Below, piece by piece: positions 7,488-38,468 of a stretch of 64,000 nt of DNA. Where the stretch lies: the IMG/VR virus record IMGVR_UViG_3300031370_000003; one strand, 5' to 3'. The notes below the pieces were generated by a model. That model did not search any database. It had not been told where the DNA came from and saw only the letters and a list, made by a program, of their open reading frames with translations. The translations under genes were made by a program, and so were the position numbers. Source of the DNA: a virus. Taxonomy: Duplodnaviria; Heunggongvirae; Uroviricota; Caudoviricetes. Position 1 is the stretch's first letter. Each line of letters starts with the position of its first letter.

Positions 7488-7497
7488 GGAGTGGGTA

Positions 7498-7830
7498 ATG
7501 TCACGGACGACATTTACCTGGTTCCCGTTGTTTGATTCCGAGAAGGAGATGAAGCCGGAAGTAACCCGGCTCGCCTTCAACGAAGGGTATGAACAACGTG
7601 TAACCAGTGGTTTGAACTGGCGCAAGTCCAGCTGGGATCTGCAATTCCAGGGAACACGAGCTGAGATGCAGGAGATCGACGACTTCCTGTATGCGCGCGG
7701 CGGGGTGGAGTCATTTAACTGGACTTCACCAAACGGGCAAAAGGTTGTCGTGGTGAGCGATAGCCATAAGGTCAAAAACTCACGAGGGTACGCGACCTTG
7801 ACCACAACTTTCCGCCAGGTATTTGAGTAA
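7498..7830 (+). CDS. minor tail protein (lambda gpM-like)
   Basis: 110 aa directly after tape measure; RBS AGGAG; size and position match lambda M. Confidence 0.65.
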   Translation: MSRTTFTWFPLFDSEKEMKPEVTRLAFNEGYEQRVTSGLNWRKSSWDLQFQGTRAEMQEIDDFLYARGGVESFNWTSPNGQKVVVVSDSHKVKNSRGYATLTTTFRQVFE

Positions 7831-7877
7831 TTAAAGCCCCCAAGGATGGGGGCAAAACTTCAAGGATGAAGGTAAAA

Positions 7878-8576
7878 ATGGAAACTATTGCATCGAGCAT
7901 TCAGTCACTGCAACCGAGTGCGCTGATTGAAGTGTTTGAGTTGGATATGTCAGTAACCACCAGCGGTGGGAAGCTGTACTTTCACGCAGGCACCAACGAA
8001 CTCTCTGAGCCAATCATTTGGCAGGGGGTAACCTATAACCCATGGCCAATTGCGGCATCGGGCTTCGATAAAAATGGCCAGGGCAAGTTGCCACGGCCAA
8101 AACTGCAGGTGAGTAACCTCGATGGCATTATTTCGGCTGAAGTGCAGTCGAATGAGGATTTGATCGGCTGTAAGCTGATTCGTCGGGTCACGCTCGCTCG
8201 ATTTTTGGATGCTGTCAATTTTACTGAGGGCAACCCTACAGCTGACCCTAACCAGCATTTTGCCGATGAAATGTGGTACATCGACCAGAAGACTTTTGAG
8301 GATCGCGAGATTGTTGAGTTTGAGCTTGCCTCAGCATTCGATTTGATGGGAGTTATGCTGCCTAACCGCCAGATCGTCAAAAACTCATGCCAGTGGCGGT
8401 ATCGAAGCGCTGAGTGCGGTTATACCGGTCCCTACTTTGACAAAAATGATGCGCCAACCAAACTGGCCAGCGCCGACTATTGCACCAAGCGATTGTCATC
8501 GTGCCGTGCTCGGATTAATTACTTTGCCAACGGCATCATTGCGTTTGGCGGGTTCCCCGGAGCAAACCGCGCATGA
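7878..8576 (+). CDS. minor tail protein (lambda gpL-like) with C-terminal Cys cluster
   Basis: ~232 aa; C-terminal cysteines CQWRYRSAECGYTG...C...C consistent with the Fe-S cluster of gpL family; synteny M-L-K-I-J. Confidence 0.7.
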   Translation: METIASSIQSLQPSALIEVFELDMSVTTSGGKLYFHAGTNELSEPIIWQGVTYNPWPIAASGFDKNGQGKLPRPKLQVSNLDGIISAEVQSNEDLIGCKLIRRVTLARFLDAVNFTEGNPTADPNQHFADEMWYIDQKTFEDREIVEFELASAFDLMGVMLPNRQIVKNSCQWRYRSAECGYTGPYFDKNDAPTKLASADYCTKRLSSCRARINYFANGIIAFGGFPGANRA

Positions 8577-9349
8577 TGAAGAATGAAATGATGAATGAAA
8601 AGTTGCTTGGCGCTATGCGCCTTGCAGCTTTGCAGGAATATCCGAATGAGGCTTGCGGCCTGCTTGTTAATACAAGAGCGAACAAATATGAGTTAATTCT
8701 ATGCCGAAACGTCGCTGATGATCCTGAAAACTATTTTGTCATGCACGCCGAAGACCAAATTGCAGCTGAGAGAGCTGGCGAGGTAGTGGGTGTTTGGCAT
8801 TCGCATACTGACGAGGATAATCAGGCATCTGAGGCAGATATGTCTGGTTGTGAAGCATCAGAGTTGCCGTGGTTTATTGTCAACATCAGCAAAAACTACA
8901 ATCCTGAAATTGATGCAGAGTATCGTTTTAGTGATGTAAATGTGATCAAGCCATCTGGATTTGAAATGCCTTATGAGGGAAGGCCTTACGCATTTGGGGT
9001 ATTTGATTGCTGGTTGCTGTGCCGAGATTATTTAAAGCGTGAGAAAAATGTGGCTATTGGCGTCTGCCCTGAGTTGCATATCCCATCGTGGTGGGAAAAG
9101 GGGGTTGATATTTTAAACGACAACTTCCAATCGCAGGATCTTGTAAGATTGCCACCGGGAACCCCACGTCAAAATGGCGACATTTTCTTCATGCAGTTAG
9201 CATCGCAAGTTCCTGATCACTGTGCAGTTTACATTGGCGATGGTATGATATTGCATCATCAAATGGATAGATTGAGCTGTAAAGCAATTTATGGCGGGAT
9301 GTACGAAAAGCACACTACGCACCATTTGAGACACAAGGATTTAATGTGA
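8573..9349 (+). CDS. tail assembly protein (lambda gpK-like; JAB/MPN plus NlpC/P60 domains)
   Basis: ATGA overlap with previous gene; JAMM-like HSHTDEDNQASEADM motif and a C-terminal Cys...His papain-like region (CWLLCRDY...H); synteny. Confidence 0.7.
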   Translation: MMKNEMMNEKLLGAMRLAALQEYPNEACGLLVNTRANKYELILCRNVADDPENYFVMHAEDQIAAERAGEVVGVWHSHTDEDNQASEADMSGCEASELPWFIVNISKNYNPEIDAEYRFSDVNVIKPSGFEMPYEGRPYAFGVFDCWLLCRDYLKREKNVAIGVCPELHIPSWWEKGVDILNDNFQSQDLVRLPPGTPRQNGDIFFMQLASQVPDHCAVYIGDGMILHHQMDRLSCKAIYGGMYEKHTTHHLRHKDLM

Positions 9350-28357: not shown

Positions 28358-29140
28358 ATGAAGATGCACCCGAATATCACTCATGAAATCACAAAGCTGG
28401 TTAGAGACTCAAAGCTGCCGCTGAGCGAAGAAGAGTTCGACTCGGTTGTTGTCCAGGCTATTCAGGCTGGAGCTGACAGAATCGCGACCGCAGAGGCTGG
28501 CAAGTTACTGCTGGCCGAGTACCCGTATTTGACGGTCACCATGGTTGTTGGCGATGTTCGCCCAAGCGTAAGTAACGAAGCGCCTCGATGCGCGGCGATC
28601 GTCAGCTTTATCAGCCGAATGGGAGATTCGCCTGTCACCCATACAGCTGCTTATTACAACGGCTACATTGTCCAGACCCAGACCGTTCTTGAAGAGCTGC
28701 ACCGTGACAACTTGTGGAATTTCGTTGAGTTCATGGATGAAAAATGCGAAAGCGTGGAGTCCTCTTCGGCCATAAAAGAACTCTGGGCAACGAGTTTGGT
28801 TGGCGACGATAACACTGCAAATATGAGTGTCCCGGAAGGCATGGTTGACCTGGTTCTTGAAGGGCGAGGAACCGCCACCAAAGCGGCTAATGAGAAGAAC
28901 TTCCCAGCGTTAATGAAATTGACCGGTGGCGAGCGTCGCAAGCAGGACATTATCAATGCCTGCAGTTCAGCCTGCGATGGCGTCATGGGAGAGTATGAAC
29001 GTCGCCTGGTGAAGATGTCGAACGAAATGCCTATGTTGATGCAGGAAGCCAAATCATACGCTCTGCACACCGCTGAAGAGCTTCTGAAGCCTTTCCGTGA
29101 CCGACAACACGCCGTCATGTCTGGCTGGGGAAGCTGGTAG
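28358..29140 (+). CDS. hypothetical protein
   Basis: 260-aa ORF; RBS AGAGAGATGAAG; followed by a terminator. Confidence 0.45.
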   Translation: MKMHPNITHEITKLVRDSKLPLSEEEFDSVVVQAIQAGADRIATAEAGKLLLAEYPYLTVTMVVGDVRPSVSNEAPRCAAIVSFISRMGDSPVTHTAAYYNGYIVQTQTVLEELHRDNLWNFVEFMDEKCESVESSSAIKELWATSLVGDDNTANMSVPEGMVDLVLEGRGTATKAANEKNFPALMKLTGGERRKQDIINACSSACDGVMGEYERRLVKMSNEMPMLMQEAKSYALHTAEELLKPFRDRQHAVMSGWGSW

Positions 29141-29156
29141 CCTGACAAAAACGCTA

Positions 29157-29180
29157 TAGCCCCGTATGGGGCTTTTTTAT
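29157..29180 (+). terminator. rho-independent terminator
   Basis: AGCCCCGTATGGGGCT then TTTTTTAT. Confidence 0.75.
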
Positions 29181-29220
29181 AATTGCATTAATAAGTGATT
29201 AGCTATTTTGGTGATACAGA

Positions 29221-29679
29221 ATGACAGTTTTAAAGACCGACTTTTCGAAGATTCCATCCATATCGGGCAACAACATGTTCAGCCTGAAGTGCGAGGAAGT
29301 GCTGATCCGCAAGGAACCAACAAGAGCGAGCTACACGGTCTGCCAGCACACGATTCTGGCATTCAAAGAGGGTCGGCTGCCGCCCGGCTCATTCAGTGAA
29401 TGTGTAACGGCTATCAGCGGCGGCAAATGCAAAGCGCTGAAGATGATGGTCGAGGAAGTTCGTGCCGGTGAATCACTCTATTTCGAAGACTACGGTGCTT
29501 TGGTTGCTGAAGTTGCAGCCCGTAACAGTCAGAGCAGTTTCGGTGGCCAGCGCAAGACCAAATCCGCGATGTCACTTCTGCCGTCGCGTAAATCAAAAGC
29601 AGAAGACACAACAAAAAAGGGCGAGTTCGAGGCCATTACTGACCTTCACTCAGCCTTAGTGCAAGAGGAAAACACATGA
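29221..29679 (+). CDS. hypothetical protein
   Basis: 152-aa ORF. Confidence 0.4.
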   Translation: MTVLKTDFSKIPSISGNNMFSLKCEEVLIRKEPTRASYTVCQHTILAFKEGRLPPGSFSECVTAISGGKCKALKMMVEEVRAGESLYFEDYGALVAEVAARNSQSSFGGQRKTKSAMSLLPSRKSKAEDTTKKGEFEAITDLHSALVQEENT

Positions 29680-30080
29680 AAGTTTCGGATCTTAAAGAAG
29701 GGGAGCGCGCTTATTTCATGGTCGATTTGGAGGGGCAAAGAACGTGGGAAGAGTGTCGCGTTCTGGCTGTTTCAACATACGGCTTTGCGCTTGAGCACAA
29801 GGTGAATGGCCAGACTGTGCAGAAGTGGTACGACGCTATTGGAACCGGTGCAGCGCTTCGATTCCGACGCCTCATCGAATATTGGCATCAGTGGACGAAC
29901 AAGCAACACGGTGGGCTTTACGAGCTGGTTATGTTCGCTAACCAAAAAGCCACCATGAAAGGTTTCGTTCCTACCGCAGTTTTCAAATCAACATCGACCG
30001 GCGACATCTACTCGCTGCCGATCGAACAGTTTCACGCTGAATTTACACAACACGAGCCAGTACAAGGAGTGCCGTTTTAA
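29676..30080 (+). CDS. hypothetical protein
   Basis: 134-aa ORF; ATGA overlap; carries the recurring AAAACACATG start context. Confidence 0.45.
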   Translation: MKVSDLKEGERAYFMVDLEGQRTWEECRVLAVSTYGFALEHKVNGQTVQKWYDAIGTGAALRFRRLIEYWHQWTNKQHGGLYELVMFANQKATMKGFVPTAVFKSTSTGDIYSLPIEQFHAEFTQHEPVQGVPF

Positions 30081-31402
30081 TGGAAAAGCTGATTACCCTT
30101 CGAACCAAGCTGGATGACATCAAAGCGATGGGAACCAATGCCAAGAAAGAGGCTTTGGCCAAGCTGGACGACTTCGAGCAAAAAGCCGTTTCGCTGATGC
30201 TCAATCCATTCATCCGCTTCGGCATCAAGAAGTATAACGTAGCCCCGGCGCAGCTGGTGTCCACGCCAAGTGACCAGAAGGTATTGGATGTGTTGGAGCA
30301 GCTGGCAACGCGTCAACTGACAGGTGGAGCAGCTGTAACCGCGGTTGAGTCCATCGTTGGCTCTATGTGTGAGGCTGGTCAGGACGTGTTTCGCCGCTTC
30401 CTGTTGAAAGATCCGAAGGCCGGTGTAGGCATTAGCCTTTGCAACAAAATCTTCTCGGCGCCAATTCCAGTGTTTGAAGTTCAGCTGGCGACCGCCTACA
30501 AAGAAAAGGGGGACAAGTTCCCGTTCAAGCCGAACAAACACGCCAAATGGCCGATGATTGGAAGCATCAAGCTCGATGGGATGCGCGTTATCTGCGAGGT
30601 GATTGTGGGCGAAGAGGAGGTTAACTTCCTGTCGCGCACCGGTAATCCAGTAACATCACTCGATCACCTTAAACCGGCAATGCTGGAGCTGGCTCGTGCC
30701 ACCGGTCACCAACACGTCTTCTTTGATGGTGAGGCAACGGTCGGCTCATTTAACGGCACTGTTTCAGCGATCCGCAAAAAGAATGTGAAAGCAGTTGGCG
30801 CTCAGTTCTACATCTTCGACTTCTTCTTGCCAGAGTGGAAGGCGTTGGCCAAGACCAAAGAGTATAAATCCAATGGCATGAAGCTGAAGGAACGTAAGGC
30901 TGCGCTGGTGGCGTGGTTCCGCAATGAGAGAAGCGAAGAGTCAGCTGGTGATTTGGTGCTGGTTCCCTTTGAAATCTACCATAGCCACGAAGAGTACATT
31001 GCTCGATTCATGCAGCGTTTGGACGAGAACGAAGAAGGGGAGATGGCTTACGATCCCAACTCGGTGTACGAATTTAAGCGCTCTCGTGCCTGGTGGAAAA
31101 TGAAGGATGAGAATGAGGCAGATGGTGAAATCATTGGCTTCCTGCCTGGCGACCCGGATGCCGGCTTCGCACACACCCTCGGTAAAATCGTTGTCCGTTT
31201 GGAGGATGGTACGGAAGTTCGTGCTTCAGGCTTCAAGTATCAATACCTCGATGAGATCTGGCTGAATCAGGATAAATACATGGGGCGCATCGTGAAGGTC
31301 AATTTCCACGAATACACGCCAGATGGAAGTCTGCGCCACCCTCGGCTTAAGTGGCCAAGCTGCCTTCGTGATACAGAAGACCGTATTGGGGATAAAGAGT
31401 GA
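30080..31402 (+). CDS. ATP-dependent DNA ligase
   Basis: Adenylation motif I KLDGMR (IGSIKLDGMRVI) and downstream nucleotidyltransferase motifs; 440 aa. Confidence 0.8.
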   Translation: MEKLITLRTKLDDIKAMGTNAKKEALAKLDDFEQKAVSLMLNPFIRFGIKKYNVAPAQLVSTPSDQKVLDVLEQLATRQLTGGAAVTAVESIVGSMCEAGQDVFRRFLLKDPKAGVGISLCNKIFSAPIPVFEVQLATAYKEKGDKFPFKPNKHAKWPMIGSIKLDGMRVICEVIVGEEEVNFLSRTGNPVTSLDHLKPAMLELARATGHQHVFFDGEATVGSFNGTVSAIRKKNVKAVGAQFYIFDFFLPEWKALAKTKEYKSNGMKLKERKAALVAWFRNERSEESAGDLVLVPFEIYHSHEEYIARFMQRLDENEEGEMAYDPNSVYEFKRSRAWWKMKDENEADGEIIGFLPGDPDAGFAHTLGKIVVRLEDGTEVRASGFKYQYLDEIWLNQDKYMGRIVKVNFHEYTPDGSLRHPRLKWPSCLRDTEDRIGDKE

Positions 31403-31569
31403 TGCACAACGTGATTCCATACATCATGTTAGGGTTGATCGGTGGGGTGCTCGGTTCGGCATATTTCATCGTTGATATGCTTAAGCAGGAGTTAAAGACC
31501 GGCACTGTCGCCATGGGGCGCCGGGTGTACAAGGTTGTTGAAGTTAAGGAATTTAAACGCAATGGATAA
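31402..31569 (+). CDS. small hydrophobic protein
   Basis: 55-aa ORF (MHNVIPYIMLGLIGGVLGSAYFIV...), TGATG overlap with the ligase stop. Confidence 0.35.
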   Translation: MHNVIPYIMLGLIGGVLGSAYFIVDMLKQELKTGTVAMGRRVYKVVEVKEFKRNG

Positions 31570-31852
31570 CATTACAATTTATGACAGCCTGTTGTTGGCT
31601 TACTTTTTACTGAGCGGCTTTTACGCTGCGTTCATGGTGGGCGGGAAAGGAACCAAACTGATTATCTTATGGTTGTTCTGCCGCACTGCAAAGTTAGAAG
31701 ACTTGGCCTGGAAGCTGTTTACCATCATAGAAATGAGATACGGCAAATTGAAGGCGCAGCAGAGCTACACGATTCAGGGTAAAGAATATGCTGTAAGGAT
31801 CATGAGGAAGACGCCTGAGCCAGCAGCTGCTTCCCCAGGGCCGAAAACATAA
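31535..31852 (+). CDS. small membrane protein
   Basis: TM segment LLLAYFLLSGFYAAFMVGG; likely start ATG 31562; followed by a terminator. Confidence 0.4.
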   Translation: MLKLRNLNAMDNITIYDSLLLAYFLLSGFYAAFMVGGKGTKLIILWLFCRTAKLEDLAWKLFTIIEMRYGKLKAQQSYTIQGKEYAVRIMRKTPEPAAASPGPKT

Positions 31853-31873
31853 CCATCACCGTCAACTATCACT

Positions 31874-31902
31874 TAAGCGCCTCTCGTGGGCGCTTTTTTA
31901 AT
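31874..31902 (+). terminator. rho-independent terminator
   Basis: AGCGCCTCTCGTGGGCGCT hairpin followed by TTTTTTAATTT. Confidence 0.75.
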
Positions 31903-31923
31903 TTATGTTGCTTATAAATATTT

Positions 31924-33114
31924 TTAAATTTTATTGAAAAGCTTTCTTAATTCAGTCATTAATTTTCTCTGCAATAATTTGTATCGTATTTTCCTGATAA
32001 GGGATTTACTTACTTTATTATCACCGTAAACAATAAAGTAGTTATAGCCACGAATTAAGGCGATTCTATATATGTCGGTAAGGCAGGATGCTTTGTTTTT
32101 ACCAAATGCACCATGTGTTTTATCATCGCTTAATAAATATTTTACGGAAATTTTTTTCTTTCCAATTATGTAATAGGCCATTTCGTAAATTGAAACAATA
32201 ACCTTATCCCCAATCTTATAATCTATCTGATTGTTTTTTATGTTGTAATTCAATCTCAGTTTGCCTGATGATGTTACTTTCAAATGCTCTAGCATTTGGT
32301 ACTTAACAAGAAGATTCGCGAATCTGCCGTCATCACAAACCTCATGTAGGCAATTTAAAAATAAAACAGTAAGTTCGCTCATTGAGAGCTGTGCCCTAAG
32401 AATCCTGGAGTAATATTTTTTCCTCTCTATACTCTCTGGTAAATTATCAATAGTTTTAAGAATGGTATACAGATTCCTGAAGTAATGCCCAAAACACTCA
32501 TTGGATTTATTATTGAAATCCTCATAAAAAATACGAGCCATGCTATAACTATGATGAGGCTTCATTACATGTTCGCTGCAGGATATATTAAATTTACTAT
32601 GATTGTCATCAAGAAATTGAGTAAAGGCAGCTCTTTTTGTTGCATTATTGTATTTTAAGTTTTCAATAATATTGTTTTGAAAATTGATAAGGTTGAAGAT
32701 GCTGGTCTCGTAAGACTGCTCTGCGGTTTTTTTGTTTTGCTTAATTTGCAATGAAATAGTAATCATAAGTGCAATGAAGCCGACACTACCTATTATTGGG
32801 TTTGTTAACCCACCCACAAAATCACCATAGGTTCCAAGTGCTGCCAAATATACCCCAAAGTTTGCATCCTTCAAATTTGTCGAATGAAGTGCTTCAGAAC
32901 CAATGCCATAAACAACTAACAGAAAAAAGCCTAGAAAACACACTGAAATTATTGGGAGAAGATAAGAAATGATTTTTTTAGTCATTGAATTCAGATCTTT
33001 ATAAAGTTCAAAGGAGTATTTTAACATACCGGCAAACCAAAACACATATGATACCCCACCCTTGAGTCTACATTTATAGACTCTACAAGCCATCTTGATA
33101 AAACTTATAGCCAT
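31924..33114 (-). CDS. AT-rich polytopic membrane protein (possible abortive-infection / exclusion-type membrane protein)
   Basis: Minus-strand ORF. GC visibly far below flanks. N-terminal ~120 aa contains 3-4 TM helices (ISYLLPIISVCFLGFFLLVVYGIG, FGVYLAALGTYGDFVGG, IIGSVGFIALMITISL) followed by a ~250-aa Asn/Lys/Tyr-rich soluble domain. Start codon uncertain (33114, 33027 or 32985). Confidence 0.5.
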   Translation of the reverse strand: MAISFIKMACRVYKCRLKGGVSYVFWFAGMLKYSFELYKDLNSMTKKIISYLLPIISVCFLGFFLLVVYGIGSEALHSTNLKDANFGVYLAALGTYGDFVGGLTNPIIGSVGFIALMITISLQIKQNKKTAEQSYETSIFNLINFQNNIIENLKYNNATKRAAFTQFLDDNHSKFNISCSEHVMKPHHSYSMARIFYEDFNNKSNECFGHYFRNLYTILKTIDNLPESIERKKYYSRILRAQLSMSELTVLFLNCLHEVCDDGRFANLLVKYQMLEHLKVTSSGKLRLNYNIKNNQIDYKIGDKVIVSIYEMAYYIIGKKKISVKYLLSDDKTHGAFGKNKASCLTDIYRIALIRGYNYFIVYGDNKVSKSLIRKIRYKLLQRKLMTELRKLFNKI

Positions 33115-33192
33115 TTTTAATAGTTGTAGTTTGTCTACATGCGCTCAATATTAATTAAGCCAACGAGTGGCAAATAATTAACGATTAAGGAA

Positions 33193-33960
33193 ATGATCAT
33201 GGCAGAAGATACCCTCATTGTTGAAGCAGTACCAACCTGGCCAGCTACCTACAACTACTCGATCATTACCAACCCCGGACAGGGGATGCCAAGCCCACAA
33301 GAGCGAGTACGGCGTGCTCAGGCATATCAGAACGGCACGATGACCGCCCTGAAGCTCGAACAGTGTCTTAAAGATCCAGCTAAGGTCAAAGACCTGTTAT
33401 GTGCAGCCGCATATGCTGAAGAGTTACGCGCAACACTTAATCACGCGCTGTACCAGGCTGACTATTTGAATGCCCCGAAATTCTATGATCCAAAGAACCA
33501 AACCGAACTGACAAATGGTGCATTTGCGCCCCTAGCAGCGCTTTACCATTACGCCTTTGGTGACGGTTCTTCCTTGAGTGCCGACCTCGGCAAGCTGAGC
33601 TTTAATTTTGACCGTGGAAATTTGGCGCCGGTTAACAACATCCTGAACAGCATCCGCATTGGTCGATTCGATATTAACCAGAACATCGGTTACGACTTCC
33701 GCCAGAGTAGCTATTGGGAATGGGGTTATCTGGGACGTGTCTCTCTGAACTTACGTGGCACCCTTGACGTGGACAGGACGGGCAACTGGAGCTTTGATGG
33801 GAAAGTCATTGGTTTCAGTGATCGCTATGACGCGAACAAGGATGTTAACCGCGGTAAAGTTGGTGAGCTGCTAACTGACGTACTGCGAACCATCCCTGGC
33901 CAAGAGTACGAAATTTACTTTAAAGGCGAGCACAAGATTCAGCTGAAAGGTAAGAAGTAA
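33193..33960 (+). CDS. hypothetical protein
   Basis: 255-aa ORF on the opposite strand to its neighbours; followed by a terminator. Confidence 0.45.
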   Translation: MIMAEDTLIVEAVPTWPATYNYSIITNPGQGMPSPQERVRRAQAYQNGTMTALKLEQCLKDPAKVKDLLCAAAYAEELRATLNHALYQADYLNAPKFYDPKNQTELTNGAFAPLAALYHYAFGDGSSLSADLGKLSFNFDRGNLAPVNNILNSIRIGRFDINQNIGYDFRQSSYWEWGYLGRVSLNLRGTLDVDRTGNWSFDGKVIGFSDRYDANKDVNRGKVGELLTDVLRTIPGQEYEIYFKGEHKIQLKGKK

Positions 33961-33964
33961 TGGC

Positions 33965-33993
33965 AAAGGGGGCTTTGAAGCCCCCTTTTTTTA
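33965..33993. terminator. bidirectional rho-independent terminator
   Basis: AAGGGGGCTTTGAAGCCCCCTT flanked by A-run upstream and T-run downstream. Confidence 0.7.
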
Positions 33994-34341
33994 ATCGTTC
34001 GCGTACTCAACGTTGCTAAGCACTGAGCAGCGTGACATCCCGAAGAACTGCTTTCCAGGCTCTTTGGCTATGTGGAAAGGAACCAGAATAGAGGAAGATC
34101 CAATCTGGACACCGGCGCTCTCTACTGAGACATCACTGGCCGCGAGGTTGTACTTTGAAAATATCCGGTTTTCCGGGCGTATAACATCTTGAATCACTGC
34201 ATTGATAGCGTCTTCAGATTTGACGGTTGGGCAGGCTTCTTGATCTGCTTTCAACCCCATTTGTGCATCAACGTAAATAGCAACCACTCCAGCAGCTACA
34301 AGAGCAACAACCCCTAAGCCTACCTTAGCAATCTTGTTCAT
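33991..34341 (-). CDS. small N-terminally membrane-anchored protein
   Basis: MNKIAKVGLGVVALVAAGVVAIYV signal/anchor; minus strand. Confidence 0.4.
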   Translation of the reverse strand: MNKIAKVGLGVVALVAAGVVAIYVDAQMGLKADQEACPTVKSEDAINAVIQDVIRPENRIFSKYNLAASDVSVESAGVQIGSSSILVPFHIAKEPGKQFFGMSRCSVLSNVEYAND

Positions 34342-34863
34342 AACGCATCCCAATCAATTAGTTAGCTACCAAAAGCCAATGATAATCGTTTCACTGCGGC
34401 TGTAAATACACAAACTTAGGTGAGCTGAAACTGATCAAACGAACCGTCAAAGTGAAAAACCTGTAAGATAGGTATTTACCTACCTACCTATATCAATTAT
34501 AGTCGCTCTCGTTTTCGGCGGTGAGCGATTGTTTTTACTTTTAAAATAAATGCAAACGACACTCAGTACCTGGCAGTAGCGTAATAGCCAAACACCAGCA
34601 GGGTCAGTCTCCAGCCCTGTTATCGAAATGGAGCAGACTGAGCGAGTCTGATTACGGAACGCAGGGACGGTGGCCACGGCCACCCGACCGATGGGGTAAC
34701 GAGATGGGTGGGGGTAATTCCGACATGAACACCCGGGTTTTAAAGGCACTTCCGCCCATCTCGTTACGTCATTCCATATTACTTATGTCATTTATTCTTG
34801 GGTTGAATAATCGTAGACGTAGCCCGGCTGGCATGGTTAGCCAGCACAAATTCAGGGATCGAT

Positions 34864-35076
34864 ATGCAAGACGTTGATGAGCTTAAGCGAGCGGCCGCAA
34901 CACTCTTTGTCAAAGCTATTCAACAGAATCGTGGTGATTACGGCTCCACGAGCACTGTAGAGGCGGTAAAGCAAGGGTGTTCGACGATGACAATTAGCCA
35001 CGACGGAACTATATCGGCCTACAAAGATGGTGTGCTGAGAGTGCGAATGGGTAGCTTTGTTGGTGATCCGCAATGA
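34864..35076 (+). CDS. small hypothetical protein
   Basis: 70-aa ORF with RBS AGGGA 5 nt upstream. Confidence 0.35.
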   Translation: MQDVDELKRAAATLFVKAIQQNRGDYGSTSTVEAVKQGCSTMTISHDGTISAYKDGVLRVRMGSFVGDPQ

Positions 35077-35201
35077 TTCCATACATCTCAGAGTTTAGAT
35101 CCACACCACGCACCTAACCTTGGTGCTCGTGACAAGATTTTTTAGCTTTGCAGTATCAATGCCCCTCGAAGGGCTACATATAAAATACAAAGGAAAAACA
35201 C

Positions 35202-35813
35202 ATGTCAGAAGTCAAAAAGGTTATCACCGCGTCCGACCGTTCAGCTAAAGGGGTTGTTAAAGCTGTTGCCGATCTGAGCAAGGTTGCAGTCGAGCTGACA
35301 GCTCTGGCGCAGTCTAACGTCAACCTGGCCGAAGAAATTGAGTTCAAGCAGTCCCAACTGGCCGACCTGGATAACCAGATCAACACCAAAGAGCGTGAAG
35401 GTGCTGCCCAGCTGCGACTGCGTGTTATTGAAAACGAAGACCGCGTACTGGCTGACCTGATGAAAGCTCGTGGCCTGGCGACCATCTCCGTTGCTGATCT
35501 AAACCAGCTGAACACTCGTGCACTGAACGCTGAAGCAGGCAATGAGCAGGCAGTTGAAGAAGCGCGTACCGCTGCATTCCGTCAGGCTGACTCTGCTGCC
35601 AAAGCTCAGATTGCTCAGCTGCAGGGCGATCACCGTGTTGAAATGGCTGAACTGAACGCAAACAGCAAAGCGAAAGACAACCGCATCGAGTTCCTCGAAG
35701 CGCAGGTGACTCAGCTGCAAGGCGAAGTGAAAGCTGAACGTGACACTCGTCTGGAAATCGCTAAAGCGGAATCTAACCGCCAGGGCGTTACCGTAAACAC
35801 CGGTAAGAACTAA
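35202..35813 (+). CDS. coiled-coil protein of unknown function
   Basis: 203 aa, heptad-rich, strong RBS AAGGAAAAACAC; followed by a very stable UUCG-loop hairpin. Confidence 0.5.
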   Translation: MSEVKKVITASDRSAKGVVKAVADLSKVAVELTALAQSNVNLAEEIEFKQSQLADLDNQINTKEREGAAQLRLRVIENEDRVLADLMKARGLATISVADLNQLNTRALNAEAGNEQAVEEARTAAFRQADSAAKAQIAQLQGDHRVEMAELNANSKAKDNRIEFLEAQVTQLQGEVKAERDTRLEIAKAESNRQGVTVNTGKN

Positions 35814-35993
35814 GTTGTGTGTCTGTTCCCCTTCGGGGGAACAGCACATCGTAGAGCGGGTTGGGTTTATTTATTCACTTAAAGACTCCGCTAACAGTCC
35901 CCAGCCCGCTCTACGCTGTGTACGCAGCAGATTATGTCTGCAATCGGTAGCTGACATCGTCGAACTCCAAACCTTACTTATAGCGCAAATACC

Positions 35994-36018
35994 AAAGGGG
36001 CTTCGGCCCCTTTTTTGT
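35994..36018 (+). terminator. rho-independent terminator
   Basis: AAAGGGGCTTCGGCCCCTTTTTTG. Confidence 0.75.
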
Positions 36019-36028
36019 TGAGGCAAAT

Positions 36029-36622
36029 ATGGCAAGAATGAACGATTGGGATGCTTTTGAAGGGTATAAAGCACAATTACGGGGTTATGAAGATCACGCC
36101 AATAATCGCTTCAGTACAAGGATGCCGGCCAGCTTAACGGAGGCGTTTGAAAGGTCGATGATGAACAGCGATACCTCTTTCACTTACCAGCATATCCAAT
36201 ACAAGAACACTATGCCTGGTCGTTTCATTCAGGTGATCGGGGATAGCAGAGAAATTCGGCCACTGAGCTGTATGCAGTTGCGCACTAACTTTCTCAGCAG
36301 CCGCGAACGCTTTAACATTGCCCACATGCCAATGATGCCTTCGACATTCGAAGATGACCCATCAGACCCTATCGTAAGCAGAGCTTTTAAAACCGTCACA
36401 TTGTCATCCTTCGTCGCAATTTCAATGTCCACGCTGGATAGCAGGGCGCGTCATTTCTCGCTCTACTTTGCTGACAAATTCATAGACGGAGCCGCCAGCT
36501 TCAGCCCGATTTTCTTTGAGTCTAACGGTGCTCGTGTTCCTGACAACGCACCGGCTGAAGAATACCTAACCTGGCCGCGTCGTACAGCCAAGAGCGATTT
36601 TCTGGCAAGATTTACCAGCTAA
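36029..36622 (+). CDS. hypothetical protein
   Basis: 197-aa ORF. Confidence 0.45.
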   Translation: MARMNDWDAFEGYKAQLRGYEDHANNRFSTRMPASLTEAFERSMMNSDTSFTYQHIQYKNTMPGRFIQVIGDSREIRPLSCMQLRTNFLSSRERFNIAHMPMMPSTFEDDPSDPIVSRAFKTVTLSSFVAISMSTLDSRARHFSLYFADKFIDGAASFSPIFFESNGARVPDNAPAEEYLTWPRRTAKSDFLARFTS

Positions 36623-36714
36623 AGATGATAGGTAGTGACCTACCAAATATTATTAGCTATTCTTGTCCCGATTTTATTAGGCAATGGACGCCTACACTAA
36701 CGAAGGGAATCAAC

Positions 36715-37173
36715 ATGACAGATGCGGAACTGGAACAGCAGTTAATCGAAAAGGGGCTAACCGCCCCGCGGGTTACTCTTGAGCACATCGAAAGCCTGAT
36801 TGCAGAAGAGCACTATTTCTCAGCTTACGACGGCATCCGAGCTGCAAACCAGGGCGTTGATGCAGCTTGGTGGGCGAACACGGCCGCCGACCGTCACACA
36901 TTTTGCTATCTGCTACTGACCAATGGTTACACTGTCACGGGTGAAAATGCGTGTGTGAGCAAAGAGAACTTCGATCCCGAGCTGAGCCGCCAGCTGGCGC
37001 GCCGCAACGCTATCGCAAAAATCTGGCCTCTTGAGGGCTACCTTTTAAAACAAACATTGAGTGATGAACAGAATGGTAAAAGTGAAAATATATGGCAAAG
37101 AACAGTGCGCCTACTGCAAAAACGCAAAGGAGCTGGCCGAACAGCTGCAGAGCCAGGGCAAGCTGACGTTTGA
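36715..37173 (+). CDS. hypothetical protein (possibly phage gp49/gp66-like family)
   Basis: Start ATG 36715 with RBS GAAGGGA; weak resemblance from memory to the N4 gp49 / Sf6 gp66 family; 3' end overlaps the next gene by ~110 nt. Confidence 0.35.
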   Translation: MTDAELEQQLIEKGLTAPRVTLEHIESLIAEEHYFSAYDGIRAANQGVDAAWWANTAADRHTFCYLLLTNGYTVTGENACVSKENFDPELSRQLARRNAIAKIWPLEGYLLKQTLSDEQNGKSENIWQRTVRLLQKRKGAGRTAAEPGQADV

Positions 37174-37315
37174 GTACATCGACATCCAGGTCGCCGGGAT
37201 TGGTGCGACGGAACTAAGTGAGCTTGTTGGCAAGCCGATTAGACAAGTACCCCAGATCTTCGTTGATGATAAACCGGTGGGCGGCTACACTGAGTTTGCT
37301 AAAATTCACTCGTAA
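37061..37315 (+). CDS. glutaredoxin-like protein (NrdH/Grx-type)
   Basis: MVKVKIYGKEQCAYCKNAKELAEQL: C-x-Y-C redox motif in the typical Grx position; ~80 aa; true start may be ATG 37073. Confidence 0.6.
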   Translation: MMNRMVKVKIYGKEQCAYCKNAKELAEQLQSQGKLTFEYIDIQVAGIGATELSELVGKPIRQVPQIFVDDKPVGGYTEFAKIHS

Positions 37316-37327
37316 CTGAAGGCCCCT

Positions 37328-37352
37328 TTGGGCCTTTTGTTTCTCAAAAGGA
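37328..37352 (+). terminator. rho-independent terminator
   Basis: AAGGCCCCTTTGGGCCTT followed by TTGTTTCTC. Confidence 0.7.
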
Positions 37353-37362
37353 TGTCTAATTA

Positions 37363-38349
37363 ATGAATAATGAAACTACACCTTTTATACCTTATGAGAA
37401 TAACCCCTTTGGAATTTCTGACCGTGTCATAGTCGTTGCGCTCGACGATCAAAAAAATATTCGTCACATTCAGCAATTAAAAGATTACATTCAGAAGCCG
37501 AGTATACAAATAGCCATGAATAGCCATGGGGCTAGCCTGCTAGATGTATTAACCAAGGAGAACTACCTGACCCTTAATCAAGCAGGAGAGCCTGGCCTCA
37601 AATTTTTTTGCACAAATAATCCGCATGGAGATGCTACAAAGCTTTTGGGTTCTATAGCCGAAGCTATAATAGTACAAGAATGCAATAACAATCCTGAATT
37701 TAACAGGGCCATGGCAAGGCATGCTCGTGGAAGCTCAGAATTATCAGAAATTCCAGATGGTTACATAGCAATTGCCACTGGTTCTTATCAAACAAAACTT
37801 CACCACAACAATCACTACAACCCTAATGACACTCAACGAGATATTATTTGGGTTGACAAAAATGACGCTGCTCTTCAATTAGACTCAGTTTCACTTTCAA
37901 TTAACAAGCACTCTACTAAACCTGCAGGATTGCAGATCAAAGCAAGTTATGATTATAGAAACGTTTTAAGAAATATAGAAAAATATGCCTACCCCGTTGT
38001 CTACTTCGATATGAATAATGATTGGGACTATCTCAATGTCGCCATCAGAAATATAAATAAAAACGGTTTGGGAAATGAAATAAAATTAGTTAAGCATGAT
38101 GATGTTCTCAAGGACATCAAACATCGCCTGAGTCACTATCACCAGATTATAGTGGCATTACTACAAGGTGAATGTTCAATGCAACAGTTGATTGAAGAAG
38201 CAAATTATAGAGGTGATAGTGCTTTAGGTAGCGTCATAGACAATGCAGCTCCTGACAGTGGTGACAAGGTCATTCTCCCTGTAGAAAAATCATTTGAAGA
38301 ACAAATGAGGGAGGCCAGCCGAAGAATAGCCGAAAGTCTATTTAAGTAA
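37363..38349 (+). CDS. low-GC hypothetical protein (moron next to integrase)
   Basis: 328 aa, Asn/Ile/Lys-rich composition from AT-rich DNA, between a terminator and the integrase. Confidence 0.5.
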   Translation: MNNETTPFIPYENNPFGISDRVIVVALDDQKNIRHIQQLKDYIQKPSIQIAMNSHGASLLDVLTKENYLTLNQAGEPGLKFFCTNNPHGDATKLLGSIAEAIIVQECNNNPEFNRAMARHARGSSELSEIPDGYIAIATGSYQTKLHHNNHYNPNDTQRDIIWVDKNDAALQLDSVSLSINKHSTKPAGLQIKASYDYRNVLRNIEKYAYPVVYFDMNNDWDYLNVAIRNINKNGLGNEIKLVKHDDVLKDIKHRLSHYHQIIVALLQGECSMQQLIEEANYRGDSALGSVIDNAAPDSGDKVILPVEKSFEEQMREASRRIAESLFK

Positions 38350-38468
38350 AACATCCCTAGCTGAACGTCCAGAAATCAAAAAACAAGCTTTAAATGATTC
38401 CATACTTATATAGTATGGAATCATTGTAAAATCCGAGCTATGCTGACCCTAAAAAAGAGGTTTCGCAT

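Follow-up and report, generated by a model that had tools for sequence, protein, structure and literature searches.

An accessory island of 2,520 bp in the window (the whole 64,000-nucleotide stretch of DNA that was analysed) is best read as composite 'competition' cargo, made up of a colicin M (ColM)-type bacteriocin and immunity module together with a putative AbiC/AbiP-group anti-phage module; we put the probability of this reading at about three in four. Each island gene belongs to a known family, and the island is not a new kind of system. The preliminary description of this DNA had treated the whole cassette as a defence or exclusion module, but two of the three genes appear to encode a bacteriocin and the matching immunity protein, and such a pair is aimed at competing bacteria, not at phage.

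The island and its carrier

Judged by sequence, the carrier is an SSU5-like temperate phage-plasmid, and the island occupies a variable slot that follows the DNA ligase gene. The ligase is 74–77% identical to the ligases of SSU5, pJN2-26 and Cyrano, in which the genes are ordered in the same way. Among the backbone genes are those for tape measure, tail J, tail fibres, DNA polymerase and ParA, together with an endolysin-like gene. The carrier is placed in this group by its synteny and homology with SSU5 and by having both virion and plasmid-maintenance genes, and its close relatives have been deposited as circular plasmids. Two of these relatives lack the island; pCP102 has 374 bp in its place, and a plasmid of Cronobacter sp. 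JZ38 has 1,662 bp with three other ORFs. The breakpoints are sharp, which bears out the earlier view of the island as moron-like accessory cargo, and they define its limits in place of the 31874–34353 first proposed. The same island is present at loci L013, L014, L015 and L016, and at L018 the slot holds a divergent toxin-immunity allele; different toxin-immunity alleles fill one slot in related phage-plasmids.

Homology to pCP102 and the JZ38 plasmid stops at position 31896, and the left breakpoint (31896/31897) falls directly after the terminator of the ligase operon. This terminator, with an 8-pair stem and a T-run (−11.9 kcal/mol, z −3.0 on folding), is conserved backbone and not part of the island. 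A second hairpin has a 10-pair GC-rich stem (−17.3 kcal/mol on the + strand, −17.8 kcal/mol on the − strand); it is a clear terminator on the + strand and has just three T after the stem on the − strand. Both hairpins that had been thought to bound the island are real, but the first belongs to the backbone and the second sits between the toxin and immunity genes.

The three island ORFs alternate in orientation (−, +, −) and break a co-directional series of + strand genes, as first described; a shorter start is likely for each. The reported drop in GC content is also real, at about 0.33 over 31.8–33.2 kb. The 400-bp windows covering 31800–33199 have values of 0.32–0.34, against 0.46–0.54 on either side and 0.494 over the window as a whole. 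It is, however, restricted to the Abi-like gene (GC 0.323, GC3 0.326), the other two genes being ordinary (0.497 and 0.476).

Table 1. Features of the accessory island and its left boundary; coordinates are those of the window.
Feature	Coordinates	Strand	Size or elements	Basis
Accessory island	31897-34416		2,520 bp	comparison with pCP102 and the Cronobacter sp. JZ38 plasmid
Intrinsic terminator of the upstream ligase operon	31875-31901 (hairpin 31875-31895)	+		terminator scan
ORF, Abi-like	31924-33114	-	396 aa
Predicted AbiC/AbiP-group (putAbiC) membrane protein; module 2	31924-32985 (frame open to 33114)	-	353 aa, likely start ATG 32985	Pfam, PADLOC, phrog
Bacteriocin and immunity gene; module 1	33145-34364
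Candidate sigma-70 toxin promoter	33124-33152	+	TTGTAG, 17 nt, AATATT
ORF, toxin	33193-33960	+	255 aa
Predicted colicin M-family (lipid II-degrading) bacteriocin	33199-33960 (ORF opens 33193)	+	253 aa, likely start ATG 33199	Pfam, PDB, fold
Hairpin terminator common to the convergent toxin and immunity genes	33965-33988			scan, folding
ORF, immunity	33991-34353	-	120 aa
Predicted immunity protein, diverged Cmi-like ('PeiB'-type)	33991-34341 (ORF opens 34353)	-	116 aa, likely start ATG 34341	profile, Cys, synteny
Putative sigma-70-like promoter of the immunity gene, inside the island	34379-34406	-	TTTACA, 16 nt, TATCAT

The colicin M-type toxin and its immunity protein

The product of the central gene, at first listed as a 255-aa unknown, is assigned to the ColM family by both sequence and fold. 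It matches the Pfam model Colicin_M (PF14859) with an E-value of 9.5e-28 (97.5 bits, cutoff 27) and, among PDB entries, pectocin M2 (2.8e-28) and ColM (1.2e-21). With its AlphaFold2 model (mean pLDDT 83.2) as query, all 14 significant Foldseek matches are ColM-family proteins, with TM-scores of 0.70–0.72 to full-length ColM. Homologues already carry the annotation "lipid II-degrading bacteriocin", and plasmids of Pantoea and Rahnella carry full-length relatives. Such a protein would be expected to hydrolyse lipid II and to kill sensitive cells from outside.

The compact three-part architecture also corresponds to that of ColM. Residues 1–12 are disordered in the model and include a TonB box, D4-T-L-I-V8, that aligns with E2TLTV6 of ColM, in which L4 and V6 are essential; both follow the pattern xTLxV. 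A helical central domain (approximately residues 21–90) is followed by an α/β catalytic domain (approximately residues 100–253) that bears the motif D-R-Y-D-A-N-K-D-V-N-R. The TonB box suggests import through an outer-membrane receptor. No hydrophobic segment and no signal peptide are seen in the toxin, and the sequence AAGGA precedes its ATG by 7 nt. Overall identity to ColM is only ∼24%, rising to ∼29% in the catalytic domain, and ColM is encoded on a conjugative plasmid instead of a temperate phage-plasmid.

The core catalytic residues of ColM, Asp226, Tyr228, Asp229 and Arg236, correspond with Asp210, Tyr212, Asp213 and Arg220 of the toxin (255-aa numbering), which are invariant or nearly so in 15 aligned sequences. 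In the family alignment (A1) D, D, N and R are invariant, as are many further positions in the catalytic domain besides the D, Y, D and R of the motif. The signature DxYD(x5)HR is broken at a single residue, His235 of ColM, which is Asn in the toxin and Asn, Lys, Ser or Thr in 14 of 14 family members. The H235A mutant of ColM retains 1.4% activity and is non-toxic (PMC8469651). Functional burkhocins without this His are known, however, and the same Asn-Arg pair occurs, in DKFDADSSNR, in burkhocin M2, which is active by experiment (PMC4661593); not every active member therefore has the motif His.

Comparison with other ColM-type toxins shows that the best matches to the catalytic domain are the characterised ColM orthologues pectocins M2 and M1, syringacin M and PaeM, with ∼35% identity to pectocin M2 and a Foldseek E-value of 8e-16 for syringacin M. 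The pectocins differ in having a ferredoxin receptor-binding domain and no TonB box, where the island toxin has its helical ColM-like central domain. The Pseudomonas ColM-type toxins are paired with four-helix PmiA immunity proteins, unlike the Cmi-like protein encoded here. Another likeness is to the enterobacterial ColM-α bacteriocins of Pantoea and Erwinia, accompanied by 'PeiB' (Ghequire et al. 2018, PMC5821083).

The 116-aa product of the downstream gene is probably the immunity protein of this toxin, distantly homologous to Cmi and with an inner-membrane anchor. It had been noted earlier as a small anchored protein, and the anchor is indeed seen, as one hydrophobic segment at residues 2–30; the rest would form a periplasmic domain, in an overall size close to that of Cmi (∼117 aa). 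Cmi (4aeq, 2xgl) is its sole PDB match, with E ∼2 for the single sequence and 2.8e-4 for a 26-member profile. Profile-profile alignment of the immunity family with Cmi by hhalign gives P 2.3e-7 and a probability of 93.5% over 80 columns, and brings both Cys residues and the C-terminal VEYAND into register. Cys37, Phe89, Cys105 and Tyr113 are invariant in the family, and Cys37 and Cys105, present in all 26 sequences, align with Cys31 and Cys107 of Cmi. The Cmi fold comprises one helix and a four-stranded sheet; the AlphaFold2 model of the island protein has the transmembrane helix, one helix and five short strands, with a mean pLDDT of only 55.6.

None of the 26 family members matches the Pfam YebF/Cmi model PF13995 (E up to 1), and the window protein has no Pfam match at all. 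Its sole named relative is from Pantoea. PeiB is likewise described as having Cmi-like topology without the YebF signature and as paired with a ColM-type toxin (PMC5821083), a likeness that holds by description alone; in contrast to PeiB, the island family is related to Cmi by profile comparison, as a distant homologue and not an unrelated protein. The toxin and immunity genes are convergent, with stop codons 30 bp apart, and cmi, too, has its own promoter and lies downstream of its toxin gene in the opposite orientation (PMC8469651, PMC5821083).

Upstream of the island immunity gene, TTTACA-16 nt-TATCAT is the top promoter-like match (10/12) in a scan of 8.5 kb, and by analogy with cmi (PMC8469651) we infer that it is the promoter of this gene. 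The toxin gene appears to have a weak promoter of its own, in which TTG of the −35 element and A.A.T of the −10 element are invariant in the phage-plasmid, chromosomal and lambdoid-prophage copies (alignment A5). The best LexA and Fur box matches upstream of the toxin, 12/20 and 12/19, are at background level, compared with 17/20 and 17/19 in the lambdoid-prophage copies, and CTGT-N8-ACAG does not occur in the whole window. The island differs from the ColM locus of the E. coli pColBM plasmids in having neither an upstream colicin B operon nor an SOS box. The two share the lack of a lysis gene (PMC8469651); in the island only the three ORFs have homologues, and no lysis gene adjoins the toxin gene.

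The AbiC/AbiP-like gene

The low-GC gene is a candidate abortive-infection defence gene, as the preliminary description had suspected from its membrane-protein profile. Among the families then named for profile searches putAbiC was matched (PF16872, E 2.3e-20, 73.3 bits, cutoff 22; residues 204–279), and Abi_2 and KAP NTPase are absent from the Pfam matches (E up to 0.1). PADLOC models for AbiP (1.3e-11, residues 99–269) and AbiC (5.1e-5) are also matched, as is phrog_8999 (1.3e-30). The conserved core comprises 353 residues from Met44, the position at which relatives of ∼355 aa start, and the motif LGTxGDFxGGxxNPI is kept among them.

The N-terminal membrane domain reported earlier is present, but consists of only two hydrophobic segments (Kyte-Doolittle), an anchor of the kind that characterises the putAbiC group. 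The anchor comprises two helices in lactococcal AbiC and one in AbiP, and AbiP is a nucleic-acid-binding protein with a cytoplasmic soluble domain (PMC13064643). The island protein resembles AbiC in this respect; its large C-terminal domain, rich in L, K, I, N, S and Y, is predicted by the positive-inside rule to be cytoplasmic. Like the lactococcal proteins it would be a single-gene system with an N-terminal anchor and a putAbiC domain, but it comes from a Gram-negative phage-plasmid and the match covers only part of it. In the literature we found no enterobacterial protein of this group with tested activity, and even in Lactococcus the mechanism is not known (PMC13064643). At one locus, L023, a relative lies among defence-type neighbours.

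Association of the modules and their possible role

All three genes occur together at L013–L016, and a short contig, L012, has the Abi gene and toxin and ends right after the toxin gene. The toxin-immunity pair is found without the Abi gene at L005-7, L018 and L019, the toxin gene alone at L008-11, and the Abi gene with neither the pair nor any toxin trace at L021 and L023. Toxin remnants lie beside Abi-like genes at L017 (Enterobacter asburiae chromosome) and L022 (a contig of host GC ∼0.39); L017 also keeps a scrap of the phage-plasmid backbone and is therefore not an independent occurrence. The same toxin family is present in integrated lambdoid prophages of the Enterobacter cloacae complex and on a non-phage metagenome contig, adjoining insertion-sequence remnants. 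A Klebsiella SSU5-like phage-plasmid of the same backbone type, pRHB30-C05_4 (NZ_CP057316), carries a ColM-type toxin with a Cmi-type (YebF-family) gene between ligase and integrase. Its toxin belongs to another clade (∼29% identity), its immunity gene, recognisably YebF-type, lies upstream in the same orientation, the pair is in another slot, after a 203-aa gene, and there is no Abi gene.

The convergent arrangement of toxin and immunity genes is kept at L005-7, L013-16, L018 and L019. Over five loci the two proteins co-diverge, with toxin/immunity identities to the window pair of 98.8/94.0, 98.4/95.7, 85.9/77.6, 52.3/44.8 and 47.0/41.4%, and divergence is faster in the import part of the toxin than in its catalytic part. 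Both genes are under purifying selection, with dN/dS well below 1 (0.04–0.11 for the toxin, as low as for the ligase, and 0.12–0.37 for the immunity gene). The Abi allele, in contrast, has been exchanged in L015/L016, where its identity is 66% compared with 94–99% for the ligase, toxin and immunity proteins.

These features suggest how the composite cargo might act. The toxin would be made in the cytoplasm and freed on lysis of the producer cell, most plausibly when the phage-plasmid turns lytic. It would then bind a TonB-dependent receptor in the outer membrane of related bacteria, be pulled in by its TonB box and cleave lipid II in the periplasm, halting peptidoglycan synthesis and causing lysis. 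Carriers would be shielded by the Cmi-like protein, through its inner-membrane anchor, disulfide-bonded periplasmic domain and own constitutive promoter, and the pair would therefore favour cells that keep the element and penalise those that lack or lose it. The AbiC/AbiP-group protein most likely aborts infection by other phages.

It is possible, if rather unlikely, that the pair serves mainly to stabilise the phage-plasmid, as a population-level addiction in which cells that lose the element are killed by sibling toxin and the killing of competitors is secondary. This overlaps with the reading as competition cargo and differs only in which benefit is selected. Maintenance as a plasmid, with ParA and close relatives that are circular plasmids, is consistent with it, as are the different toxin-immunity alleles in the same slot, and the apparent freedom of the toxin from SOS and iron control would fit steady low-level production. 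Against this, segregational loss is no issue for the integrated lambdoid prophages or the non-phage contig that carry the same toxin family, close relatives manage without the pair, and release would still need some carriers to lyse.

That all three genes form one defence or superinfection-exclusion cassette guarding the lysogen seems improbable. One gene is a true Abi-family member, and co-travel in L013–L016, the Abi-toxin contig L012 and the remnants in L017 and L022 would all agree with such a cassette; the other two genes, however, have specific strong matches to a bacteriocin and an immunity protein, the TonB box marks the toxin for uptake from outside, and each module occurs without the other and at a different GC content (0.32 versus 0.48–0.50). 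We likewise give little weight to the idea that the Abi-like protein is tied to the bacteriocin, for instance by serving in its release or export or by giving the producer further protection against it. ColM-type toxins have no known release factor, two Abi alleles only 66% identical preserve the same divergent orientation to the toxin gene, and L017 and L022 have toxin remnants directly beside Abi-like genes. Yet five other toxin contexts lack the Abi gene (L005-7, L008-11, L018, L019 and L020), two Abi contexts lack any trace of toxin, L017 is not independent, and the soluble domain is predicted to lie in the cytoplasm, like that of AbiP, which binds nucleic acids. That the toxin has lost its catalytic activity or is a relic in decay, as the toxicity-abolishing H235A substitution, the absence of this His here and in all relatives and the degraded copies in L017 and L022 might imply, is very hard to reconcile with its ligase-like dN/dS, the invariant motif and catalytic-domain residues, the retained and co-diverging immunity gene and the Asn-Arg of active burkhocin M2.

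With the island taken as composite competition cargo, the killing of potential hosts is not obviously a gain for the phage side of the life cycle. Phage lysis is the likely route of release for the toxin, since it lacks a signal peptide and is accompanied by neither a lysis gene nor a LexA or Fur box. Piggybacking on prophage lysis has been proposed (PMC5821083), and lambdoid prophages of the Enterobacter cloacae complex also carry this toxin family. We suggest, tentatively, that carriage on a temperate element whose lysis cassette frees the toxin, here a phage-plasmid and in the E. cloacae complex lambdoid prophages, would be the missing release mechanism for ColM-type bacteriocins, and that the Abi gene, with its exchanged alleles, would turn the island into a cassette for both offence and defence that travels as one. 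If so, every lytic burst would release virions together with a bacteriocin that eliminates neighbours without the element.

The island and its phage-plasmid host

Three open reading frames (ORFs) on alternating strands follow the ligase gene, as the preliminary description had stated, in a region where the + strand holds almost all other long ORFs. The sharp fall in GC content reported there is also seen, with values of 0.32-0.34 over 31800-33199 in 400-bp windows compared with 0.46-0.54 on both flanks; the AT-richness is confined to the first gene, the second and third being close to the window mean of 0.494. Both of the hairpins proposed as strong terminators bounding the island are real, but the second sits between the convergent second and third genes and therefore does not mark a boundary. 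An Rfam scan of 31000-36200 (E up to 1) gave nothing but one sub-threshold chance match.

Coordinates of the island, its genes and neighbouring features
Feature	Coordinates	Strand	Length	Details
Hairpin 1	31875-31895		8 pairs	T-run; folds at -11.9 kcal/mol
Island, as delimited by homology	31897-34416
Slot in pCP102	left homology stops 31896, right resumes 34417		374 bp	filled with one 113-aa ORF
Slot in Cronobacter JZ38 plasmid	left homology stops 31896, right resumes 34464		1,662 bp	filled with three other ORFs
Abi-like ORF	31924-33114	-	396 aa	GC 0.323, GC3 0.326
Promoter-like element	33124-33152			TTGnnn, 17 nt, AAyATT
Toxin-immunity unit	33145-34364			common to window and non-phage locus
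Toxin ORF	33193-33960	+	255 aa	GC 0.497
Likely toxin start	33199	+		ATG; AAGGA 7 nt upstream
Hairpin 2	33965-33988		10 pairs	-17.3 and -17.8 kcal/mol on the two strands
Immunity ORF	33991-34353	-	120 aa	GC 0.476
Likely immunity start	34341	-		ATG
Promoter-like site, immunity gene	34406-34379	-		TTTACA, 16 nt, TATCAT
Candidate structured RNA	34525-34848	+	~320 nt	non-coding
Junction lacking Tad2-like gene	36715-36722			two alignments overlap by 8 bp
Second variable slot	37298-38393			between glutaredoxin and integrase genes
ORF in second slot	37363-38349	+	328 aa	GC 0.38

A megablast search of 29000-37500 against 50,697 phage records gave zero matches, after which the backbone was identified by protein-level and plasmid searches. 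The ligase protein shares 74-77% identity with its counterparts in Salmonella phage SSU5, Klebsiella phage pJN2-26 and Escherichia phage Cyrano, and the order of helicase, primase, ligase and small ORFs is as in these phages. Also encoded are a tape measure protein, the central tail fibre J and tail fibres, together with a DNA polymerase, a CobT-like protein, an endolysin-like transglycosylase, ParA and an integrase. Ligase identity, gene order and the presence of virion genes alongside those for ParA and integrase identify the window, at the level of sequence, as part of an SSU5-like temperate phage-plasmid.

The nearest deposited DNA is that of plasmid pCP102 from Enterobacter sp. CP102 (~93-95% identity) and of a plasmid from Cronobacter sp. 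JZ38 (~90-94%). The points at which homology to these relatives breaks and returns set the limits of the island and place the first terminator in the conserved backbone; both plasmids fill the slot otherwise, which supports the earlier view of the island as accessory cargo. Among contigs of the same backbone, drawn from metagenomes and read archives, L013 and L014 carry the same three-gene set at this position, and in L012, a contig of 4.4 kb that stops shortly beyond the toxin gene, the Abi-like and toxin genes are together. The three-gene island is present with a different Abi allele in L015 and L016 (109.5 kb). In L018 (110.4 kb) there is no Abi gene, and the toxin, at just 47% identity, is paired with a 116-aa protein of its own. 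Since its contents differ among the relatives and these contigs, the slot after the ligase is, on this comparison, a variable cargo site.

Three further features lie to the right of the island. The non-coding stretch at 34525-34848 is ~74% identical to SSU5 and pJN2-26, in which it is found upstream of tRNA-Asn, and plasmids of ~50-110 kb from Cronobacter sakazakii have it too; Rfam gives no match to it. Its consensus fold comprises 93 pairs in 15 helices, including a 25-pair hairpin. Among the five sequences in two clades on which the covariation is based, 14 pairs are changed on both sides, compared with 0-3 when the partners are slid, and 94.6% of cells are paired, compared with 33-45%; invariant G-U pairs favour the + strand. 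We propose this stretch as a candidate for a novel structured RNA in SSU5-like phage-plasmids. The ORF in the second variable slot has no significant match in Pfam, PHROG, NCBIfam or PADLOC and is missing from L013 and L015; in L018 the slot is occupied by a 359-aa gene, of which ~400 nt align with the window ORF at 69% identity, and the JZ38 plasmid has a HEPN/Toprim-associated gene near the same position. The ORF may be another defence-type cargo gene. Finally, the window is without a DUF2829/Tad2-like gene (~480 bp) that lies between a 197-aa gene and a gp49-family gene in pCP102, the JZ38 plasmid, L013, L015 and L018, and the overlap of alignments at the junction suggests loss by deletion through microhomology.

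A ColM-type toxin and its immunity partner

The 255-aa product, at first described as unknown, is assigned to the colicin M (ColM)-type bacteriocins by Pfam, PDB and structural searches. Pfam Colicin_M matches residues 101-253 (E 9.5e-28), and by sequence the PDB entries matched are pectocin M2 (2.8e-28), pectocin M1, syringacin M, colicin M (1.2e-21) and PaeM. With a structure model derived from 14 family sequences (mean pLDDT 83.2), all 14 significant Foldseek matches are ColM-family bacteriocins, and full-length colicin M aligns over ~260 columns with a TM score of 0.70-0.72, so that the helical central domain is also predicted to follow the ColM plan. Residues 1-12, disordered in the model, contain D-T-L-I-V, which MAFFT pairs with the TonB box of colicin M, E2-T-L-T-V6, where L4 and V6 are essential (PMC8469651). 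There is no hydrophobic segment in the toxin, and so no signal peptide. Its relatives start with MAE or MSE, and other gene callers assign it 253 aa.

From the signature DxYD(x5)HR, the toxin keeps the equivalents of D226, Y228, D229 and R236. The signature His is replaced by Asn, this position being N, K, S or T in all family members. The H235A mutation inactivates colicin M; burkhocin M2, which is experimentally active, has DKFDADSSNR, with the same Asn-Arg as the window toxin (PMC4661593). The dN/dS of the toxin gene against three relatives is 0.04-0.11, as low as that of the ligase. We conclude that the window protein is predicted to be a working toxin. A role as a phage lysis accessory acting on lipid II from inside was rejected, given the TonB box, the absence of a signal peptide, the periplasmic immunity partner and a location outside any lysis cassette.

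The third gene had been noted as encoding a small anchored protein in a defence module; profile comparison and gene pairing point instead to an immunity protein like Cmi, that of colicin M. Its relatives are all 115-124 aa long and begin MNK, which fixes the likely start, and the protein has one N-terminal hydrophobic segment. A PDB search with the single sequence finds Cmi only (E ~2), in an alignment that reaches the common C-terminal VEYAND. A profile search of 1.84 billion representative proteins yields only 24 family members, and four residues, C37, F89, C105 and Y113, are invariant in the family alignment (26 sequences). When the 26-sequence profile is compared with the PDB, Cmi is again the sole match (E 2.8e-4), and hhalign aligns the family with Cmi over 80 columns (P 2.3e-7, 93.5% probability), with both cysteines aligned to Cys31 and Cys107 of Cmi. 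The Pfam YebF model matches none of the 26 members, and the immunity protein has no match in NCBIfam, PADLOC or PHROGs; the structure model (pLDDT 55.6) is too poor to use, and the identification rests on the profile comparisons. These suggest that the 116-aa immunity family is a distant Cmi homologue. By description it fits PeiB, the immunity type of Pantoea and Erwinia ColM toxins, which has a Cmi-like topology without the YebF signature (PMC5821083).

The immunity and toxin genes converge, their stops 30 bp apart, and the same convergent pairing is seen in a non-phage contig adjoining insertion-sequence remnants (L005-7), in other phage-plasmids of this backbone and in a 92-kb plasmid-like contig (L019). 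With the window proteins as reference, toxin and immunity identities drop in parallel across five loci: 98.8% and 94.0% in L015, 98.4% and 95.7% in L013, 85.9% and 77.6% in L005, 52.3% and 44.8% in L019, and 47.0% and 41.4% in L018. The import part of the toxin diverges faster than the catalytic part, and dN/dS for the immunity gene is 0.12-0.37. Convergence, conserved pairing and parallel divergence provide strong genetic evidence for a predicted toxin-immunity pair, in which the small anchored protein is the putative immunity protein of the toxin.

A different arrangement is found in the Klebsiella pneumoniae plasmid pRHB30-C05_4 (L020), which has the same backbone type and carries YebF-family and ColM-type genes in a nearby but different slot (6290-7573), the YebF-family (Cmi-type) gene being directly upstream of the ColM-type gene and on the strand that carries it; an IS5 transposase lies close by. 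Two further Klebsiella plasmids, of ~108-110 kb, give similar toxin matches.

The Abi-like gene and its association with the toxin

Pfam putAbiC, one of the families proposed at the outset for the 396-aa protein, matches it at 73 bits (cutoff 22, E 2.3e-20), whereas the others, Abi_2 and KAP NTPase, are absent from the Pfam results. PADLOC gives AbiP (1.3e-11) and AbiC (5e-5), and phrog_8999 matches at 1.3e-30. We place the protein, on these profile matches, in the AbiC/AbiP group. In Lactococcus, AbiC and AbiP are each a single-gene abortive-infection system whose protein is anchored in the membrane; their predicted structures are similar, and AbiP binds nucleic acids (PMC13064643). The relatives of the window protein are ~355 aa long and begin at the position of Met44, so that the real product is probably one of 353 aa. 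It has two hydrophobic segments and a conserved motif, LGTxGDFxGGxxNPI, and the positive-inside rule would place its large C-terminal domain in the cytoplasm. Whichever of the examined host backgrounds it lies in, the gene has a GC content of 0.32-0.35, which suggests that it is foreign in origin. In L015 and L016 the Abi protein is only 66% identical (dN 0.30, dS saturated), compared with 94-99% for the ligase, toxin and immunity proteins (dS 0.12-0.20), a disparity which argues that the allele was exchanged by recombination.

Remnants at two loci show that the association of toxin and Abi genes is not random. On an E. asburiae chromosome (L017, 6427-6821 and 8111-8166), a toxin fragment with 83% nucleotide identity to 33108-33599, frameshifted and truncated, is divergent from an intact AbiC/AbiP-like gene that it adjoins; the locus keeps a scrap of phage-plasmid backbone beside it, and so probably derives from such an island. 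In L022, a contig with host GC ~0.39, a short degraded toxin fragment (4883-4975) abuts an intact Abi-like gene. It seems that, once transferred, the Abi gene persists longer than the toxin. These remnants would fit a functional tie between the Abi-like protein and the toxin, for example in release, but we consider this of low probability, as each module is also found without the other: the toxin without any Abi gene in L005-7, L018, L019, the Klebsiella phage-plasmid L020 and lambdoid prophages of the Enterobacter cloacae complex (L008-11), and Abi relatives without trace of a toxin in L021 and L023, the latter with defence-type genes as neighbours. In our reading, the toxin-immunity pair and the Abi gene have independent functions and at times travel together as a single cassette. 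A 116-aa ORF in L021, considered as an orphan immunity gene, was rejected as unrelated to the immunity family.

Control, release and significance

The promoter-like element at 33124-33152 is kept in all contexts, and the immunity gene has its own promoter-like site within the island, in parallel with cmi, which has its own promoter. LexA and Fur consensus scores upstream of the toxin in the phage-plasmid copies (12/20 and 12/19) are at background, on which ground SOS or iron control of the window copy was rejected; the LexA-box pattern CTGT-N8-ACAG is absent from the whole window. The copies in the lambdoid prophages, whose toxin is 74% identical, have an upstream Fur box scoring 17/19 and a LexA box scoring 17/20. 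In these prophages (L008-L011, ~7750-9110) the toxin gene, preceded by the near-consensus boxes, lies between dinI and the replication genes; no Cmi-like gene follows it, its place being taken by a convergent, uncalled 84-aa hydrophobic ORF (L009 8852-9106) that may represent a different immunity type.

There is no lysis gene for the toxin in the island. Colicin M also lacks one, and how ColM-type toxins exit the producer is an open question (PMC8469651, PMC5821083), for which piggybacking on prophage lysis has already been proposed (PMC5821083). Because the toxin is carried by a temperate phage with an endolysin-like gene, release at phage-induced lysis would be the most economical model; the toxin would leave the cell when the phage-plasmid lyses the producer.

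All three proteins fall into families already described. NCBI labels the toxin's relatives 'lipid II-degrading bacteriocin', and a 2018 survey found ColM-type genes outside E. coli in mobile contexts (PMC5821083). In the 50,697 deposited phage records the toxin is absent, save for a distant cma in a Pseudomonas prophage; the Abi gene, sought there by tblastn with the Abi-like protein, gives no match. Defence systems are listed in a 2025 survey of SSU5-group phage-plasmids, of which the passages available say nothing of bacteriocins on these elements; its text has 'bacteriocin' once, in another passage, and 'colicin' never.

The preliminary description of a phage-borne defence or exclusion module thus holds for accessory cargo with one Abi-like gene, but the core of the island is a predicted bacteriocin-immunity pair, not a phage-defence cassette. 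The labels of the three genes are corrected to AbiC/AbiP-like, ColM-type bacteriocin and Cmi-like immunity, and the profile comparisons, by marking the 116-aa family without the YebF signature as remotely homologous to Cmi, help to unify the ColM immunity types. In SSU5-like phage-plasmids, a defined slot after the ligase appears to serve genes for both inter-bacterial and anti-phage competition, with toxin-immunity alleles that vary by lineage. The setting of the toxin is informative for how ColM-type toxins are released: on a temperate phage with its own lysis genes, it offers a natural system for release by phage lysis, and the lambdoid copies with LexA and Fur boxes, set against the window copy with neither, provide a ready comparison of toxin control.
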